This document shows, one piece after another, positions 9,059-49,020 of a stretch of DNA of 64,000 nucleotides. Under the pieces are notes generated by a model, which was not told the origin of the DNA, did no database searches, and saw nothing but the letters and a program-made list of their open reading frames with translations. The position numbers and the translations under genes are program-made. The stretch's first letter is position 1; each line of letters starts with the position of its first letter. This DNA comes from Candidatus Omnitrophota bacterium (GTDB lineage: Bacteria; Omnitrophota; Gorgyraeia; Duberdicusellales; 4484-171), in the NCBI GenBank assembly GCA_043815185.1, contig JBDRJF010000024.1, forward strand, positions 128,533 through 192,532, written 5' to 3'.

Positions 9059-9336
9059 GCGAGGGTGGCGGAAACAGCTCTTGCGCAGCAAGACAATTGG
9101 TTATCAATAAAACAATTAGCTGTTCCCGCAATAGCTAAAAAGCTACAATAAAACTTTATCTAAGGCAGTAAGCTAAGCATAATAAATAAACTTTAATGCG
9201 AGGGTGGCGGAAACAGCTCTTGCGCAGCAAGATAGTTGCTTATTAATAAGGCGGCTAGTTGTTCCCGCAATGACTAACAGACTAAATTAAGACTTTATAG
9301 AAGATAACGAACTAAGTATAATACACAGACGTTAAT
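9059..9336 (+). repeat. Two tandem upstream modules (138 and 140 nt), each starting with the first 15 nt of tRNA-Leu(GAG)
   Basis: gcgagggtggcggaa occurs at 9059, at 9197 and as the tRNA 5' end at 9337. Both units continue aacagctcttgcgcagcaag...ag(c/t)tgttcccgcaat. Confidence 0.85.
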
Positions 9337-9420
9337 GCGAGGGTGGCGGAATTGGCAGACGCACTAGCTTGAGGGGCTAACGGTAGCGATACCGTAGGGG
9401 TTCAAGTCCCCTCCCTCGCA
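9337..9420 (+). tRNA. tRNA-Leu (anticodon GAG), no encoded CCA
   Basis: Hand-folded cloverleaf: acceptor gcgaggg/ccctcgc, anticodon loop ttGAGgg, long variable arm cggtagcgataccgt, T arm agggg-ttcaagt-cccct. Confidence 0.92.
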
Positions 9421-9564
9421 TAGTTTTATTTAATTAGAAAGTGACGGCGGACAAAAAAAGTCTGTGCTTTCGCATAAAATATCTTGGATCCAATAATAGC
9501 GGTTGAGGCTTAGCCTAAACCGGCTCGCCTTCGGCGAGATTGGATACAAGTCCTCTTCCTCGAA
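9421..9564 (+). repeat. tRNA-trailing structured module D1 (ends in a diverged copy of the tRNA-Leu 3' end)
   Basis: The 3' portion reads ggatccaat..cggttgaggcttagcctaaaccg..ctcgccttcggcgag..attggatac followed by caagtcctcttcctcgaa (3 mismatches to the tRNA 3' end), then CCA. Confidence 0.7.
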
Positions 9565-9580
9565 CCACAATGTACGGTAG

Positions 9581-10936
9581 ATGAAAAAACTCACTTTATT
9601 TCTGATAATTCTTGTATTTCCCACCATTGTAAATGCCGATGCAATTTACCTAAAGGGTGGCCAGAAAATAGAAGGAAAATTTTTAAATACAACAAGCGAG
9701 TATATAAAAATAGATTTTTATGGAGTAGAATTAACTTACTTCTTAGATGAAATAGATCATACAGATATGGATGAAAAACCGACTCAAGGTCATACTTCGG
9801 CTTTTGAGCGTAAAATAAAAGGGTTAAGTTGTACTACAATGGATGAGGTATTAGAACTTTCGGAAGAAGAAATAGATATAGCTACCGCACTTCTTATAAT
9901 ATCTAAGGAGTCTAATAATACCATAAATATCATAGATTATCGTAATGAAATTGATAGTATGGTATTAGAGTTATCTAGACGAATACGCGGCACGAAAGAT
10001 CCAAGAATGATTATAGAGACAATGAATTCCTATTTGTTCGATTCCATTGGATTCAAGCCAAGGATTTTAAAGGATTATGTCTCTGGAAGTAATCCGGAAA
10101 CCTCTTTTTTAAGTAATGTATTGGACAGAAAAGAAGGAGATTGTGAGGGTTTATCTGGTTTATATTTATCGCTCAGCGAAAGACTAACACTACCGATTTA
10201 CGGAGTGTCTTTACCCGCTCATAAGTTTGTTCGCTATACAGATGGCATAACTTCAATAAATATTGAAATGACGGATAGAGGGGAAGTCCACAGTGATGAA
10301 GAATATATAGAATATTATAATTTACCCGGAAAAACATCATTCAAAATTCAATCAAAAAAAGATTTTATTATAGATCATATTATAAAACTTGGCACTTTTT
10401 GGGGATATATAAAAAACCCAGATAAAGCCATTTTTTGGTTGGAGAAAGCTTTAGAGATAAATCCTCAAAGTGAACATGCTCATAATTCGCTGGGTCTCGC
10501 ATATAGAGAAAAGGGATTAATATCAGAAGCAATTTCGAAAATAAAAAAAGCTATAGAAATTAACTCTACTATAGCTGATTTTTACTATAATTTGGGTAGT
10601 ATATATGATAGAGAAGGGATGAAAGACGAGGCTATTGCAGAATATAACAAAGGGCTAAAAATAGCTCCTTCCCCTGCTATTTATTGCTTTCTAGGTAATA
10701 TATATGCTACAAAGGACATGTTGGATGAATCTATTATGCAATATAAATGCGCAATAGAACTCGACCCTAATTACGGTGATGCGCATTGTTTTATTGCTGA
10801 TTGTTACAGACGGAAGGGAGAATACAATCTTGCTTGGCAACATGCAAGAATTGCACAAAAATTAGGCCAGCCATTAGCTACATATGAGATAGAAGAACTA
10901 AATAAAGTTTCAAGCGAACCATCTTTAAAGGAATAA
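9581..10936 (+). CDS. Secreted transglutaminase-like / TPR-repeat protein
   Basis: Signal peptide MKKLTLFLIILVFPTIVNA, a Cys-core-like motif EGDCEGLSGLY, and C-terminal TPR repeats (AIFWLEKALEINP.., AISKIKKAIEIN.., AIAEYNKGLKIAP..). Confidence 0.6.
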   Translation: MKKLTLFLIILVFPTIVNADAIYLKGGQKIEGKFLNTTSEYIKIDFYGVELTYFLDEIDHTDMDEKPTQGHTSAFERKIKGLSCTTMDEVLELSEEEIDIATALLIISKESNNTINIIDYRNEIDSMVLELSRRIRGTKDPRMIIETMNSYLFDSIGFKPRILKDYVSGSNPETSFLSNVLDRKEGDCEGLSGLYLSLSERLTLPIYGVSLPAHKFVRYTDGITSINIEMTDRGEVHSDEEYIEYYNLPGKTSFKIQSKKDFIIDHIIKLGTFWGYIKNPDKAIFWLEKALEINPQSEHAHNSLGLAYREKGLISEAISKIKKAIEINSTIADFYYNLGSIYDREGMKDEAIAEYNKGLKIAPSPAIYCFLGNIYATKDMLDESIMQYKCAIELDPNYGDAHCFIADCYRRKGEYNLAWQHARIAQKLGQPLATYEIEELNKVSSEPSLKE

Positions 10937-11045
10937 AATAGTTACATTAAGGTAGGGGCATGACTACCTTAAATCAAAATAATTTGGTTGCTAAACCAAC
11001 CAAATAAAGTATTAATAAATTCGAAAAGAGTAAAAGGAGGGAAAA

Positions 11046-11477
11046 ATGGTTAAACGGCCGTATTTGATAAATTTTATCGCTTGGACCGAAATTATTTTTG
11101 GCTCAATAGGATGTTTAATTTTTGCGGGTTTAGCAGTATACAATCTAGTGGGGGGCTTTTTTGACCATACTTATGGTTACTGGGGCATAGCTTTTGGATT
11201 TATCTTTCTAATATCTGCCTTATTATTTCTTTTCCAAATGATTTGTGGACTAAGCATTTTTAAAGCTAAAAGATGGATTTTAACATTTGTTCTTGGTTTT
11301 TTTAAAATGCTTCTTTATTTAGCATGCATCGTTTTAAGCGTTTATTTAATATACATCAATAAGTATCTAAATAATCTTATCCTTTTTTGTGTATTGGTTC
11401 TGTTTATATTTTTAGCGTCAAGTATATATGTAGTTTGGTGGCTAAGCCGTCCTTTTGTAAAACAGCAATTTACATAA
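11046..11477 (+). CDS. Hypothetical integral membrane protein (4 TM)
   Basis: 143 aa and strongly hydrophobic, with AAGGAGG upstream. Confidence 0.45.
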   Translation: MVKRPYLINFIAWTEIIFGSIGCLIFAGLAVYNLVGGFFDHTYGYWGIAFGFIFLISALLFLFQMICGLSIFKAKRWILTFVLGFFKMLLYLACIVLSVYLIYINKYLNNLILFCVLVLFIFLASSIYVVWWLSRPFVKQQFT

Positions 11478-11525
11478 TCTATATCTAATAATTTTCTCTT
11501 ACTCTACTAAACTTTTAATGCTACC

Positions 11526-12283
11526 AGGGGACGGTTCTCGTTGCCCTATCCTTTACCCGCACAATAAGTTGTAAACACACCATTATAAATATCTAATTTA
11601 TTTGAAAGAAAAAGCCTTCTTTATACGTCTATTATAGAAAAGAGGAGGTTTTTATGCCACGCCAAGCCAGAGAAATTCCATCAGCAGGGTATCTACATAT
11701 AATAAGCCGAGGAAATAATAAAAGGAAGATCTTCCGCTACGAAAGGGATAAAAAGCAGTATTATCTCTATCTTAAAAATTTGAAGCAGCAAGAGAAGATT
11801 AATATTTGCCATTACTGCCTTATGGGTAATCACGTACATCTTCTTGTAGAGGTAAGGCAGGAAAGTAACCTATCCAGGTTTATGAAACGGATCAACCTTA
11901 AATATGTCTATTACTACCAAAGAAAATACACCTATTGTGGCCATCTCTGGCAGGATAGATTCCAATCAAAGATAATCAATAATGAGCCTTATCTGATACA
12001 ATGCGGTAAATACATAGAACTAAATCCTGTACGGGCCGGCATTGTTTCCTCTCCGGAAAATTACCCTTTCTCAAGCTATCACTACTATGGCGTTGGTCAA
12101 AAAGATTCACTTATTACCCCAAACCCTTTATATGAAGGCTTAAGTAAACAACAGGAAAAGAGACAGCATATATATAGAAATCTAATAATTGAGAAAGAAA
12201 ATGAGACAGAAGAAACAAAAAAATAATTGTCTGTTCATAACTAACTGGTGTATAATAAGTAAGGGGTGAGAGAACCGTCCCCT
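11526..12283. mobile_element. RAYT/IS200-like unit 1 bounded by 14-bp inverted repeats
   Basis: aggggacggttctc at 11526-11539 and its reverse complement gagaaccgtcccct at 12270-12283 flank the Y1 transposase gene. Confidence 0.6.
11654..12226 (+). CDS. IS200/IS605-family HUH Y1 transposase, REP-associated (RAYT)-like
   Basis: 190 aa. HUH motif GNHVHLLVEV; Tyr-motif region GKYIELNPVRAGIV; WQDRFQSKII. Confidence 0.75.
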   Translation: MPRQAREIPSAGYLHIISRGNNKRKIFRYERDKKQYYLYLKNLKQQEKINICHYCLMGNHVHLLVEVRQESNLSRFMKRINLKYVYYYQRKYTYCGHLWQDRFQSKIINNEPYLIQCGKYIELNPVRAGIVSSPENYPFSSYHYYGVGQKDSLITPNPLYEGLSKQQEKRQHIYRNLIIEKENETEETKK

Positions 12284-12297
12284 TCTGGAGGTTAAGT

Positions 12298-13062
12298 ATG
12301 GCAAAAATCACTTTCCTGGGAACTTCTTCAAGCATTCCTACAGACAAAAGGGACAATACTTCTTTTATTCTGGCTCATAAAAAACTTAGGCTTCTAATCG
12401 ACTGCCCCGGCTCGATAACACAGAAACTCTTAAAAATAGGGTTAGATTTTAGAAAAATAAAGGATATCGTTATCACCCACGAACACCCTGACCATATTTA
12501 CGGAATAATCTCACTCATTCATACCCAAGCTTACTTTAATGACAGCTTAAGAATATTTACTACCCCGCCTTCTCTAAAAATTATTAGGCAATTAATAAAG
12601 TTATTCGAATTGGATAAACCCCAGTATCCCAAGGTAAAGTATGTTAATGTATTTAAGAGAAAAAAATTCTTAAACAAGGAGGGGTTAAGAATATCGGCAA
12701 TAAGAAACAAACATATTCCCGGTTCTTTTGGGATAAGAGCCTCTTTCGCTAAAAAGTCCTTATTCTACTCTTCAGATACCTCATTCTCTAAAAGGATGCT
12801 GAAGGAAGCTGGCCAGACTAACTACCTTATCCATGATTGCACTGCTTCCTCCTCCTTTTTCCAAAAACACCCTTCTCTCTATAAAATGCATACTTCAGCC
12901 AAAGAGCTCAGCGATTACCTAAAGGCTTTCCTAAGGATAAAATTTATTCCAGTACATTTTTTACTTATTACCAAGAGTGAGGAGAAAAAAATAAGAAAGG
13001 AATTGAAATCTTTGGGCAGCAGGGTTATCTGGGCGGAAGATTTTAAAACAATTGTTCTTTAA
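12298..13062 (+). CDS. MBL-fold metallo-hydrolase, short RNase Z-like
   Basis: 254 aa. The N-terminus KITFLGTSSSIPTDKRDNTSF..LIDCPGS..ITHEHPDHIYG parallels RNase Z, but the protein is shorter, with no obvious flexible-arm insert. Confidence 0.55.
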   Translation: MAKITFLGTSSSIPTDKRDNTSFILAHKKLRLLIDCPGSITQKLLKIGLDFRKIKDIVITHEHPDHIYGIISLIHTQAYFNDSLRIFTTPPSLKIIRQLIKLFELDKPQYPKVKYVNVFKRKKFLNKEGLRISAIRNKHIPGSFGIRASFAKKSLFYSSDTSFSKRMLKEAGQTNYLIHDCTASSSFFQKHPSLYKMHTSAKELSDYLKAFLRIKFIPVHFLLITKSEEKKIRKELKSLGSRVIWAEDFKTIVL

Positions 13063-15405: not shown

Positions 15406-15628
15406 AATACTCTACCATAAGTTAAACAAAAAACCAATAAAAAACCCCACCTTTCATCCGTTACAGGCAATTGCTATCAATCCCTCGCTAGACAAGTGGG
15501 CACCGCATCATTACCGACCAAACGATAAGAGATATTGGCTCCCTATTAAGGGTGTTGGTTGTAGCACTCTTACCTGCTGACGCAATAGGCAGGGTTTATT
15601 TTCCCCTTGTTGTCTTCAGGTTAAACTT

Positions 15629-21992: not shown

Positions 21993-22333
21993 TATTTTAC
22001 TGCCTCTACAATTTTTACAAACACCTCCGGATGTTCCGCAGCCAGTTTAGCTAAGATATCCCGGGAAAGAGGGATTTTCTTCTTGGCTAAAGCATGGATA
22101 AATCCCCGATAAGAGATACCGGTACCTTCTAAGGCTGCATTGATGCGCGTAATCCAGAGTGAACGAAATTCTCGTTTTTTTGTTCGTCTATGCCGATAAG
22201 CAAAGGCATAGGCGCGTCTTAGTGTCTCAATAGCTCTACGATATTTTGTAGAACGCTCTCCCCAATATCCTTTAGCTGCTTTTAAAACTTTTTTCTTCCT
22301 CTTACGGGAAGCAACGGAACTCTTAACTTTCAT
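21992..22333 (-). CDS. rplT: 50S ribosomal protein L20
   Basis: 113 aa reading RKRKKKVLKAAKGYWGERS..AYRHRR. Confidence 0.95.
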   Translation of the reverse strand: MKVKSSVASRKRKKKVLKAAKGYWGERSTKYRRAIETLRRAYAFAYRHRRTKKREFRSLWITRINAALEGTGISYRGFIHALAKKKIPLSRDILAKLAAEHPEVFVKIVEAVK

Positions 22334-22479
22334 TTTTTACCTCCAGTAGTCTTTCATCCCATCTTTGCTTGCTCTTCTTGCGAAAACTTATTTTGCATAT
22401 TAATAACGATAATGGATGCAATGCGGCTTTTCCAGCCGCTCCGCCTGCGGCGGAGATTGTATACAGCTTAGTCTCCTTT

Positions 22480-22680
22480 CTAGGCAGAGTAGGGTAGGGC
22501 TCTTTTGAGCACCCCGCTGTCTGCTTTTGACATTACAGCTTTACGCCTTAGTTTTCTCTTGCGTTTTTTAGATTTACCGCTTAAGAGATGGCGCCGGCCG
22601 GCCTTAGACCTTAAGCCTTTCTTCTTCTTGGTAATTTTTACTCTTTTGGCTACCGATTTTCTAGTTTTTAGTTTTGGCAT
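22480..22680 (-). CDS. rpmI: 50S ribosomal protein L35
   Basis: 66 aa reading MPKLKTRKSVAKRVKITKKKK. Confidence 0.95.
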   Translation of the reverse strand: MPKLKTRKSVAKRVKITKKKKGLRSKAGRRHLLSGKSKKRKRKLRRKAVMSKADSGVLKRALPYSA

Positions 22681-22740
22681 TAGTACTCCCTCTTTGTCTC
22701 TGTTCCTATTATATGCGAAATTAAAAGATATGGTAGCTGT

Positions 22741-34257: not shown

Positions 34258-35049
34258 TTAAAGGACCTCATTGAGCTTAAATACCGGTCCCTCCTTACAT
34301 ACTTTTTTATAGCCGGACTTAGTCTTTATGCTGCAGCCGCAGCAAACACCTAAGCCACAACCCATAAATTGCTCAAAGGAAACCTGGCAGTTTACTTTTT
34401 TATTGCCGGCTCTTTTAATAACTTTTTTCATTTGTTTAAACATTGCTTCCGGGCCACAGGAGTAAATGTTAATTGCCAGTTCCCGGTCCTGGGCATCAAG
34501 TACCCTTTCTAATAATTCAGTGGCAATGCCCTGGTGCCCATCTGAGCCATCTTCGGTAGCCACCATTACTTTACAGCCGCGTTTCTTAAAAGCATCTAGA
34601 CATAATACTTCGTCATCGTTTTTCGCCCCCAGGATAACAGCAGTTTTTGTTTTTTTTAATTTATCGGCTAAAAAGACCAGCGGGGCAACCCCTAAGCCTC
34701 CGGCAAGAAGAATATTCTTACCGGCCTTGCCGTTTAAACAAAACCCATTTCCCAAAGGCCCAATAATATTTAACTTATCTCCGGCCTTGTATCCCGACAA
34801 AATCTTAGTTCCTCTTCCCCGGATTCTAAAGAGGATAAATACGGTTTTACCCTTAAGGCAATGGATACTAAACGGCCTTCTTAAAATGGTTTTAATTATT
34901 TTAATATGCAGGAATTGTCCCGGCTGGGAATTCTTGGAAATATAGGCAGAATCAAAACTCAGAAGAAAGACATCAGGCTTGATTTCATTAACTTTTTTGA
35001 CTCTTGCGGTAAGTTCTTTAGGGGCCCCAGCCTTGATCATGCTTTCCAT
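34258..35049 (-). CDS. pyrK: Dihydroorotate dehydrogenase electron-transfer subunit
   Basis: 263 aa with the FAD-binding motif RRPFSI and a C-terminal Fe-S cluster CGxGxCxxC (MGCGLGVCCGC). Confidence 0.85.
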   Translation of the reverse strand: MESMIKAGAPKELTARVKKVNEIKPDVFLLSFDSAYISKNSQPGQFLHIKIIKTILRRPFSIHCLKGKTVFILFRIRGRGTKILSGYKAGDKLNIIGPLGNGFCLNGKAGKNILLAGGLGVAPLVFLADKLKKTKTAVILGAKNDDEVLCLDAFKKRGCKVMVATEDGSDGHQGIATELLERVLDAQDRELAINIYSCGPEAMFKQMKKVIKRAGNKKVNCQVSFEQFMGCGLGVCCGCSIKTKSGYKKVCKEGPVFKLNEVL

Positions 35050-35054
35050 ATTAT

Positions 35055-35091
35055 AGCAGATTATTTTAGTTTAACAATGGGGGAAAATTGA
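35055..35091. repeat. 37-bp direct repeat, copy 1 (pyrK promoter region)
   Basis: agcagattattttagtttaacaatgggggaaaattga is identical to 35946-35982. Confidence 0.95.
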
Positions 35092-35098
35092 ATCTTCA

Positions 35099-35941
35099 CA
35101 GACGTCCTATTTGCACCCCATTGTAGGCATCCTACAAAGGTACATCCTACTGGTGATCAATCCAGGCTATTATATCTTAAAATCCTTATCTATAATATCT
35201 TCATACATTCTTGGCATCAAAACATATTGTCTGTAAAATTTTCTACATTCCTCAACATTGCTAAATGTTCGATATAAAGGATTCGGTGTAAGTGAGGTGT
35301 TTTGTCGTCCATAGGCATAGAAAGCATAACTTGACCATTTGTAATCTTTTAAAGCTTTAACAAGTTTTGCTCTTAAAGGATTTGTCTCTATGTACCGCGC
35401 GCACTCTAAGAGATATTCGTTTTTTGCTATGATTTTGCTCTTATATCTTCCTTGATAAAGATGGCCTGTGTATTGGTATTTTTGTTTGAAATAAAAACGA
35501 TAAGATTGGAATATCCCTTGTGTAAGCTTTGCCAATTCTTCTTTTTTGAATACTTTCATTAAAAGATGGACGTGGTTATCCATAAGGCAATAATTGTATA
35601 GCTCAAAGGAGTATTTGTCTTTATACTTCTTTATTAGCGCTATAAACCTCTGATAATCCTCAATTACCTTCAATAGCCGCTGGCCATTGTTTCCTTTTTG
35701 TATAATATGGTAGATTGCACCATCGTATATCTGTCTTTTCACCGTAGACATAACTCTCGCCTCCTTCTTTTCTAGGGTGCACCTTTGTAGGCGTCCTACT
35801 TTACCCCTAAAATAGGACGTCTGTTATGCTTCCTTATATAATAGACGTTAGAGGAAGCTGATTTCTTTCAATTATTTTAAGTTTTTTGGTAGGGGTGTCC
35901 CTTTGTAGGACGCCTACTTTACCCCTAAAATAGGACGTCTG
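35099..35941. mobile_element. RAYT/IS200-like unit 2 bounded by about 50-bp imperfect inverted ends with REP-like hairpins
   Basis: The left end is cagacgtcctattt..gtaggcatcctac. The right end is gtaggacgcctac..aaataggacgtctg, with a second right-end-like copy at about 35776-35823. Confidence 0.7.
35170..35751 (-). CDS. IS200/IS605-family HUH Y1 transposase, REP-associated (RAYT)-like
   Basis: 193 aa with HUH motif DNHVHLLMKV, LYQGRYKSKII and ARYIETNPLRAKLV. It is a paralog of 11654..12226. Confidence 0.75.
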   Translation of the reverse strand: MSTVKRQIYDGAIYHIIQKGNNGQRLLKVIEDYQRFIALIKKYKDKYSFELYNYCLMDNHVHLLMKVFKKEELAKLTQGIFQSYRFYFKQKYQYTGHLYQGRYKSKIIAKNEYLLECARYIETNPLRAKLVKALKDYKWSSYAFYAYGRQNTSLTPNPLYRTFSNVEECRKFYRQYVLMPRMYEDIIDKDFKI

Positions 35942-35945
35942 CATC

Positions 35946-35982
35946 AGCAGATTATTTTAGTTTAACAATGGGGGAAAATTGA
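35946..35982. repeat. 37-bp direct repeat, copy 2
   Basis: Identical to 35055-35091. Confidence 0.95.
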
Positions 35983-40782: not shown

Positions 40783-40801
40783 TTAGCTTATATTAGATAA
40801 A

Positions 40802-40939
40802 TGCCCCCGGCAGGAATCGTATGCAATCTGCCCCAGGCAGTTGAATTCGAAGAATTCACCCTATTGCATCCGATGGCCGCCATCACAATAAGTAAAAACC
40901 TTACCCAGCCACAGGCACCTATCGATTACTAAAAAACCG
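40802..40939 (-). repeat. tRNA-trailing structured module D5 (ends in a copy of the tRNA-Arg 3' end)
   Basis: The minus strand reads ggatgcaat..tgaattc-ttc-gaattca..ctgcc-tgg-ggcag..attgcatac cgattcctgccgggggca. Fifteen nt are identical to the tRNA, followed by 1 mismatch. Confidence 0.7.
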
Positions 40940-48859: not shown

Positions 48860-48871
48860 ATAAATAAAAAG

Positions 48872-49020
48872 CGACCCCAGCCGGATTTGTATGCCCTCTC
48901 CGACGAAGTCGGAGCCGGTTGAGGCTAAGCCTCAACCGCATATGCATACAAAATAAGACATTGGCTTTTGTCGCTACCCCTGAGTTTTAGCTGGATACTG
49001 AGCTTTAGCATTAAATAATA
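48872..49020 (-). repeat. tRNA-trailing structured module D4 (ends in a copy of the tRNA-Glu 3' end)
   Basis: The minus strand reads tgtatgc..cggttgaggcttagcctcaaccg..ctccgac-ttc-gtcggag..gcataca followed by caaatccggctggggtcg (18 nt identical to the tRNA). Confidence 0.72.

Follow-up and report, generated by a model that had tools for sequence, protein, structure and literature searches.

A displaced tRNA-Leu(GAG) 3' end in a Candidatus Omnitrophota genome points to small structured insertion modules of an undescribed family

Background

Why should a tRNA gene be followed at a short distance by a second, diverged copy of its own 3' end, and why should CCA stand after the copy and not after the gene? 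The question is raised by the tRNA-Leu(GAG) gene in a 64,000-nt stretch of a metagenome-assembled Candidatus Omnitrophota genome (contig JBDRJF010000024.1 of assembly GCA_043815185.1). The whole stretch, here called the window, is an ordinary part of the core chromosome around dnaA/oriC. The preliminary description of this locus likened the arrangement to an integrase-type insertion, with the distal fragment as the original tRNA end and the proximal one as element-borne, and proposed that modules of this kind form the 5' untranslated regions (5' UTRs) of the genes downstream. The comparisons reported below trace the diverged copy to small insertion modules with a conserved structure, a family not described before: the segment 9421–9546 is probably a non-autonomous member of this family, of about 125 nt, and the distal copy together with the CCA the displaced original end of the tRNA gene. 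The searched full-text literature held no description of modules like these.

Results and discussion

The diverged copy as the displaced end of the tRNA gene

The locus comprises the following features (R1 is a covariance model of the core shared by the 3' modules and the start-codon copies described below).

9337–9420, forward strand: functional tRNA-Leu(GAG) gene without an encoded CCA (ARAGORN 9336–9421; Rfam 48 bits)
9421–9482, forward strand: left part of the 3' module, with a T-rich start, a TTTAAT motif and a hairpin
9483–9551, forward strand: predicted three-way junction core of the 3' module (R1 match 80 bits; fold z = -3.0; pair counts)
9547–9564, forward strand: displaced original 3' end (tRNA positions 56–73) with three substitutions, CAAGTCCTCTTCCTCGAA
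9565–9567, forward strand: encoded CCA of the original tRNA gene, supported by relatives

The proximal copy of positions 56–73, which came with the element, lies at 9403–9420 within the functional gene, whose end is separated from the distal copy by 126 nt. A recheck confirmed the copy as described previously: CAAGTCCTCTTCCTCGAA differs from 9403–9420 by C63>T at 9554, C66>T at 9557 and C72>A at 9563, is followed by CCA, and the ATG at 9581 lies 13 nt past the CCA. An 18-mer match with at most three mismatches is expected by chance 0.03 times in the window.

Orthologous loci were retrieved via the neighbouring proteins and coded with locus numbers; the response-regulator gene is 94% identical in the sister genome L031 and 88% identical in L075–77. 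In L075–77 the tRNA-Leu(GAG) gene has no 3' module and ends ...CTCGCA-CCA-ttaaaacaaATGGCAAAG, encoding its own CCA. The module is present in the window and in L031, where the CCA after the distal copy is conserved and the distal copy runs into CCAataataagaaATGGCAAAG, the same flank as that of the intact gene in L075–77; the more distant L078 and L079 are likewise without a 3' module at this site. This native flank identifies the distal copy and CCA as the old gene end; the working gene uses a new 3' end without CCA. At the tRNA-Pro(CGG) and tRNA-Pro(GGG) genes of related genomes the CCA also stands after the distal copy and not after the proximal end. Given the occurrences in L031 and at the Pro genes, the CCA of Leu(GAG) is more than a chance triplet, and represents the CCA that the ancestral gene encoded.

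The clearest pair of filled and empty sites is found at tRNA-Glu. This site is empty in L080, the closest relative there (GyrA 95% identical), and in L081 and L082, and the window locus is that of L080 with 149 nt added, a perfect 18-nt repeat from C56 to the discriminator marking the limits of the addition. The flank past the distal copy, including an ATG 12 nt on, matches with few substitutions the flank that in L080 directly follows the tRNA, and the insertion is recent. The sites at tRNA-Leu(TAA) and tRNA-Val(GAC) are empty in L071, L073 and L074. The earlier proposal that the distal fragment is original and the proximal one element-borne is therefore borne out by native flanks and encoded CCA for Leu(GAG) and by the match to the L080 flank for Glu.

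The displaced end of Leu(GAG) is decaying rather than conserved. Between the window and L031 (2121–2138) the distal copies differ at 6 of 18 positions, about three times the 11% divergence at the fourfold sites of the adjoining gene. All but one of the six differences are C>T, and an exposed strand that undergoes deamination may be the cause. Purifying selection was considered from the same pair of genomes and rejected, the fourfold divergence being only 11%.

Modules at the 3' ends of ten tRNA species

Four further tRNA genes of the window carry modules of 133–151 nt, each ending in a copy of positions 56–73 of its own tRNA.

48869–49019, reverse strand: tRNA-Glu 3' module, three-way junction 48885–48952, perfect 18-nt distal copy 48872–48889
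40799–40938, reverse strand: tRNA-Arg(CCG) 3' module, three-way junction 40815–40874, distal copy 40802–40819
63459–63600, forward strand: tRNA-Leu(TAA) 3' module, three-way junction 63520–63584, distal copy 63580–63597
63715–63849, forward strand: tRNA-Val(GAC) 3' module, three-way junction 63776–63834, distal copy 63829–63846

In all, 14 modules were found after 10 different tRNA species. The spacing between the repeats is uniform (about 125–131 nt), and every 3' module consists of a variable left part of 60–67 nt followed by a conserved three-way junction, so that the closing helix of the junction, P1, starts 60–67 nt past the tRNA end. The left part of Leu(GAG) is kept in L031 and has no paralogue at the other tRNAs of the sample. 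The left parts of the tRNA-Phe module (L003) and of the Leu(TAA) module (63459–63520) are homologous, and GCCGAGGTT occurs in both. This sequence corresponds to the acceptor 5' strand of tRNA-Phe rather than to that of tRNA-Leu(TAA), a hint that a module may have moved between tRNAs. At the Val(GAC) site a completely different module is present in L005. Directly after the Val(GAC) module, ahead of tRNA-Asp, lies a perfect sigma-70 consensus, TTGACA-17-TATAAT (63857–63885), which is kept in relatives with and without modules.

The R1 model retrieved 28 full-length cores in about 195 kb of DNA and 6 more in JGI metagenome contigs. A first scan of JGI metagenomes with a combined pattern of P1 and a repetitive extragenic palindrome (REP) gave 0 matches and a second one start-codon copies only; a P1-pattern scan of viral contigs gave chance matches only, in contigs that contained no tRNAs. 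In the Rfam search only tRNAs and 6S RNA exceeded the gathering threshold in the window, and the modules had no match even at E≤10. As far as sampled, the family is confined to one group of Omnitrophota genomes.

A three-way junction with a tetranucleotide guide

The consensus of P1 is yTyG-G-ATsCAAT ... ATTGsAT-A-CrAr. Its outer four base pairs are formed between an internal tetranucleotide, the putative guide, and the first four nucleotides of the right-hand tRNA copy (T-loop C56–N59), and a conserved G.A mismatch stands exactly at the boundary between element and tRNA-derived sequence. In Leu(GAG) P1 reads CTTG-G-ATCCAAT / ATTGGAT-A-CAAG, the final 5 nt of the core overlapping the tRNA copy, and is accompanied by a REP-like hairpin (P2) and a GC hairpin with a TTCG loop (P3). 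The guide covaries with its target across tRNAs: GTTG/CAAC in Phe, CTTG/CAAG in Leu, TTTG/CAAA in Glu, Pro, Tyr and Val, and ATCG/CGAT in Arg. Pairing is kept in 96% of the cells of the R1 alignment, which comprises 28 copies, and both partners vary in 13 of the pairs; the outermost two pairs of P1 occur as GC7/AU5/CG5/UA5 and UA14/AU12, values reached in 0 of 500 shuffles, and no slid register comes close. This alignment was fitted to the model itself, and a hand-independent MAFFT alignment shows the same picture. Orthologous Leu(TAA) modules from genomes diverged by about 50% at fourfold sites also exhibit compensatory changes in P1 and P2. The guide matches its target in the recent Glu insertion as well, which argues that guide and target were already complementary when the module inserted and were not made so by later evolution.

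P3 is a GC hairpin throughout the modules, and P2 is usually the REP-like palindrome CGGTTGAGGCTwAGCCTCAACCG (9499–9522, 48916–48939 and 63533–63556 in the window), which is dispersed intergenically in several related metagenome-assembled genomes (L002–L057), some of them labelled 'uncultured Planctomycetia'. The hairpin GGTTGAGGCTnAGCCTCAACC was considered as a signature of the modules and rejected, being a generic REP-like palindrome found mostly away from tRNAs. A degenerate tRNA pseudogene was rejected too, for the left part does not align to tRNA positions 1–55 and the empty sites show a discrete insertion, as was a self-cleaving ribozyme, the junction being without hammerhead core motifs by eye. 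Some modules have a G-rich stretch in the left part that is complementary to the tail, GCCGAGG in the Phe module. The corresponding helix, which would close the tail against the left part as in a minihelix mimic or a natural external guide sequence for RNase P, is exact in the Phe module; it is weak or absent elsewhere and does not covary for Leu(GAG).

Modules at tRNA 5' ends and at start codons

Both Leu tRNAs of the window also bear upstream modules that start with an exact copy of tRNA nucleotides 1–13, and Leu(GAG) has two of them in tandem. Their core, the three-way junction of a sister family (3WJ'), is described by a second covariance model, R2.

9059–9071, forward strand: exact copy of tRNA-Leu(GAG) nucleotides 1–13, the distal copy with native upstream flank, which starts 5' module 1
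9068–9132, forward strand: predicted 3WJ' core of 5' module 1 (R2 match 92 bits; alignment)
9198–9271, forward strand: 5' module 2, with a second copy of nucleotides 1–13 (9198–9210) and a 3WJ' core (9207–9271)
9294–9322, forward strand: promoter-like site TTTATA-17-TATAAT (10/12 matches) in the spacer of 5' module 2, ending 14 nt before the tRNA
63235–63370, forward strand: tRNA-Leu(TAA) 5' module, with a copy of nucleotides 1–13 (63235–63247) and a 3WJ' core (63244–63306)

The target tetranucleotide of these modules is GCGG or TTGG (D-stem positions 10–13). After it come a single mismatched base and a stem of 7 bp, then two hairpins and the return strand of the stem, and finally the guide, CCGC or CCAA. 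In 5' module 1 the D-stem strand GCGG thus closes with an internal CCGC beside an A.C mismatch. Past the guide lies a spacer that contains a promoter-like site, and nucleotides 1–13 are then present once more. The number of 5' modules at Leu(GAG) is 0 in L079, 1 in L078, L075 and L031, and 2 in the window. One member of the 5' family was found off tRNAs (L005, 158–305, reverse strand), where a 17-nt repeat, TTTTCACGTGGAAACAC, overlaps CACGTG palindromes and is followed by TATAAT; it is an insertion into an operator/promoter, which it rebuilds.

Apart from the tRNA genes, R1 finds many copies, termed type B, that are placed in antisense orientation precisely at the start codons of diverse genes (rpmJ, rplT, pgsA, gmd and an MBL-fold gene, among others) and share the layout of the 5' modules, which lie on the tRNA's own strand. 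Their guide, (G/A)ATG, is complementary to CAT(C/T), which is the native start codon with its preceding base as read on the opposite strand. The right flank usually still contains the ribosome-binding site native to the gene; from the other end of the element come about 75 nt of leader together with a new Shine-Dalgarno site and start codon (ATG). An empty/filled pair is available at the yjeF_N/MBL junction, where L031 has an insert of about 190 nt and the window and L075 are empty. One such copy lies in the window.

22411–22468, forward strand (antisense to both genes): type B core between rpmI and rplT, joined to the new leader, Shine-Dalgarno site and ATG of rplT

At this gene (window 22333–22700) the apparent old start is CTG instead of ATG and the present start reads GGAGGT...ATG; the copy has an orthologue in the JGI contig L085 (2154–2211). 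Throughout the family the modules are discrete insertions whose presence varies among close relatives. In every case a direct repeat of the target flanks the module and the interrupted functional unit is rebuilt.

The genes downstream

The ATG spacing of 12–13 nt that had suggested 5' UTRs or processing signals exists without a module in L080 (Glu) and L075 (Leu), so nearness to an ATG is inherited from the tRNA, and the proximity of the Leu(GAG) module to the ATG at 9581 is most likely incidental. The genes downstream of the three modules concerned encode a TPR/transglutaminase-like protein, a SLOG-family protein and an unknown protein, mutually unrelated, and the 5'-UTR proposal was not supported. 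No terminator was predicted between tRNA-Leu(GAG) and the 9581 gene, which makes passive read-through possible, but there was no indication that the module serves this end. As a sigma-70 promoter inside the module, one weak match (9/12) was tried and rejected. The 9581 gene itself belongs to a lineage-specific block.

9568–12297, no strand assigned: 2.7-kb insertion, missing in L031 and L075, that separates the old tRNA end and its CCA from the MBL-fold gene at 12298

The block holds the 9581 gene, coding for a TPR/transglutaminase-like lipoprotein, a 143-aa open reading frame without a family, and a gene for a RAYT-like Y1 transposase (11654–12226) flanked by its own inverted REPs (CCAGGGGACGGTTCTC...).

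Alternative explanations

The arrangement could be the remnant of a tyrosine-integrase island at a tRNA T-loop attachment site, reduced by internal deletion to its two arms. Integrase islands and prophages insert in tRNA genes, create a direct repeat from the T-loop to the 3' end, rebuild the gene with the near copy and displace the original end with its native flank, and the 18-nt repeat (positions 56–73), with a distal copy that retains its native flank and encoded CCA and a proximal one that is element-borne, has just the form expected of attL and attR; it begins in the T-loop, a classical crossover position of tRNA-targeting integrases. Real islands do occur in the tRNA clusters of relatives: in L071 (11228–12977) the gene for a large serine recombinase overlaps the end of tRNA-Asp in the same cluster, there without modules, and in L074 (13040–20573) a helix-turn-helix protein, a reverse transcriptase, RadC and a type I restriction-modification system follow that cluster. 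The repeats of the modules, however, enclose only about 125 nt, with no tyrosine or serine recombinase in the window or beside any sampled module; the uniform size and core position at 10 tRNAs are not what random deletions would repeatedly give; the same core and boundary logic recurs at start codons, at one promoter and in D-arms, and an internal 4-nt guide covaries with each target. We regard such a remnant as improbable. Of the integrase-type reading put forward previously the geometry thus stands, but not the integrase, none being present beside an element of about 130 nt that occurs at 10 or more different tRNAs. A functional RNA leader, in which the tRNA-like 3' end and CCA would be cut by RNase P or Z and shape the downstream 5' UTR, would suit the lack of a predicted terminator before 9581 and of more than a weak promoter-like site inside the module, the fold of Leu(GAG), which is better than that of shuffles, and the substitutions of the distal copies, since most of these are C>T or A>G changes, after which G.U pairs with the 5' strands of the tRNAs would still be possible. 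It is nevertheless highly improbable in view of the identical ATG spacing without a module, the unrelated downstream genes and the later arrival of the 9581 gene, the presence of CCA only after distal copies whose ancestral gene encoded it, and the evolution of the Leu(GAG) distal copy, which is faster than that of fourfold sites. Nor does the tail have a consistent partner strand: no covarying partner was found for Leu(GAG) between the window and L031, and the duplex z-scores (mostly -0.3 to -2) are weak. The type B copies are transcribed in the opposite orientation.

Alternatively, the modules might be domesticated structured elements kept by selection as stabilisers of transcript ends, as insulators or terminators after tRNAs, or as portable promoter/leader cassettes. 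The junction of Arg(CCG) indeed shows 1 difference in 60 nt between the window and L017, at a fourfold divergence of 21–27%, and the left part of Leu(TAA) differs by about 8% at a fourfold divergence of about 50%, with compensatory changes in the helices. Such low divergence may stem from recent transfer or gene conversion, however, and the junction diverges by 8% between the window and L031, about the fourfold rate. The conservation of the rplT-linked copy in a JGI relative, and the promoter-like site, Shine-Dalgarno site and ATG brought by 5' and type B modules, would agree with a host role; against it, presence and absence vary among very close relatives, the Val(GAC) module is swapped between the window and L005, and the junction is used in either transcriptional orientation. 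Selection for such a role is in our estimate an unlikely reason for the modules. An insertion module with a displaced original end accommodates the native flanks, the encoded CCA and the empty sites of relatives, and is the explanation preferred here.

Comparison with known mobile elements

Among known systems, casposons share several properties with the modules. They generate target duplications of 14–35 nt, use the 3'-distal ends of tRNA genes as targets, have an invariant tetranucleotide at one end of the duplication and re-use the same site in tandem (PMC4779613). The modules are alike in their long duplications, tRNA 3' targets, key tetranucleotide and tandem re-use of one site, but differ in being miniature, in the tetranucleotide, which covaries with the guide instead of being invariant, and in the lack of Cas1, PolB and terminal inverted repeats. 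Terminal inverted repeats were looked for and none were found: the ends of the module, TAGTTTTATT... and ...GATTGGATA, are not inverted repeats of each other. Bacterial miniature inverted-repeat transposable elements (Correia elements, ERIC, RUP) resemble the modules in that they are short non-autonomous elements present in many copies, lie at the boundaries of genes, form structures in transcripts and can donate promoters. The modules differ from these in having no terminal inverted repeats and no short fixed duplication (the repeats are of 13–22 nt), and in inserting inside gene ends (T-loop, D-stem, start codon) with regeneration of the interrupted part.

In the IS200/IS605 family the cleavage or target tetranucleotide interacts with an internal guide tetranucleotide located 5' of a hairpin, and no target duplication is made (PMC6006769). 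The modules are alike to IS200/IS605 and to the REP/REPIN-RAYT systems in having a strand-specific folded end and a guide:target tetranucleotide, and the genome contains RAYT-like genes and REPs, one REP being the P2 hairpin. The guide of IS200/IS605, however, lies 5' of a single hairpin and makes partly non-canonical contacts, whereas in the modules a three-way junction stands between guide and target and the two pair in an ordinary Watson-Crick helix, and the perfect 18-nt repeat at the recent Glu module has no counterpart in a system without target duplication.

Candidate enzymes and a possible mechanism

Pfam scans of the window identified no integrase, Cas1, reverse transcriptase or PolB. 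The only mobile-element enzymes in it are two RAYT-like HUH proteins, which score 76 and 69 bits against NF047646 (cut-off 80); one is encoded by the 11654–12226 gene mentioned above.

35170–35751, reverse strand: RAYT-like Y1 (HUH) transposase with inverted REPs on both sides, candidate trans-acting enzyme

The cassette containing the latter gene is bounded by a perfect 37-nt direct repeat (35055–35091 and 35946–35982), whose downstream copy runs into TATAAT, so that the insertion splits and rebuilds the promoter of the gene for a dihydroorotate dehydrogenase electron-transfer protein (34258–35049).

With the RAYT-like HUH proteins as the sole mobile-element enzymes of the window, a mechanism acting on single-stranded DNA is the leading guess. 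The folded junction, as single-stranded DNA or possibly as RNA, would pick its target by 4-nt pairing; the insertion would create a direct repeat of 13–22 nt, or need one, and the interrupted gene would thereby be regenerated; and an enzyme would act in trans, the leading candidate being one of the HUH/RAYT type, although its role in driving the modules is weakly supported. Two routes may be envisaged. If insertion makes a long target duplication, the intact gene, the CCA left behind and the sharp, perfect Glu repeat would be explained; against this option stands the length of the repeats at start codons, which varies. If an element that carries a copy of the target is joined site-specifically, the conserved leader, Shine-Dalgarno site and ATG of type B would be explained, and perhaps also the trailer-like left part at Val(GAC); this option is weakened by the motifs that the left parts at different tRNAs have in common.

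Several observations weigh against the modules being mobile elements driven in this way. No autonomous copy was found in the sampled DNA and no enzyme is linked to the modules; both RAYT-like genes are flanked by REPs different from those of the modules, and neither R1 nor R2 has a match beside them, so that a cognate Y1 transposase with the same flanking structures was not found. The analogy to IS200/IS605 is loose, given the guide geometry and the duplication. The direct repeats measure 18 nt at tRNA 3' sites, about 6–15 nt at start codons and 13–22 nt for the 5' modules, which does not fit a single fixed stagger. Searches with blastn found no paralogous source copies of the left parts in the sampled DNA, the left parts being site-specific. 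The first ~45 nt of the Val(GAC) module (63715–63760) resemble the native tRNA-Val trailer of the module-less L071 and L073, a likeness that fits neither simple target duplication nor a simple carried copy; the 'empty' sites may keep a remnant, or the module may have captured the trailer. A host function, too, could account for the conserved junction, and all the genomes compared are metagenome-assembled. With these points in mind, we propose only tentatively that the modules represent an undescribed miniature mobile class, with a three-way junction that carries a programmable 4-nt Watson-Crick guide, a duplication of about 18 nt that regenerates the gene end, and an enzyme of the RAYT-type HUH kind or another.

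Other features of the window and its relatives

The 6S RNA gene of the window lies at 15440–15598 on the reverse strand (Rfam RF00013, 49.5 bits against a gathering score of 46.4). Five Omnitrophota GyrA homologues (P0285, P0314, P0319, P0345 and P0358; 1055–1339 aa) contain intein/homing-endonuclease Pfam domains, which are missing from GyrA of the window.

Conclusions

Partial tRNA copies or 'tRNA-like' tails beside tRNA genes of Omnitrophota would, on this interpretation, be better annotated as insertion scars than as regulatory leaders or pseudogenes. If the modules do form such a mobile class, they would be able to live harmlessly in essential sites, namely tRNA T-loops, D-arms, start codons and promoters. 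If they are mobile as their anatomy suggests, a selfish element would occupy the most conserved sites of the genome without cost by rebuilding the gene end that it splits, and in doing so would rewire promoters, ribosome-binding sites and even whether CCA is encoded. The natural function of RAYTs is still unclear, and the covariation of guide and target points to a simple, retargetable recognition rule, which may be relevant to HUH enzymes, to RAYTs and to programmable insertion.

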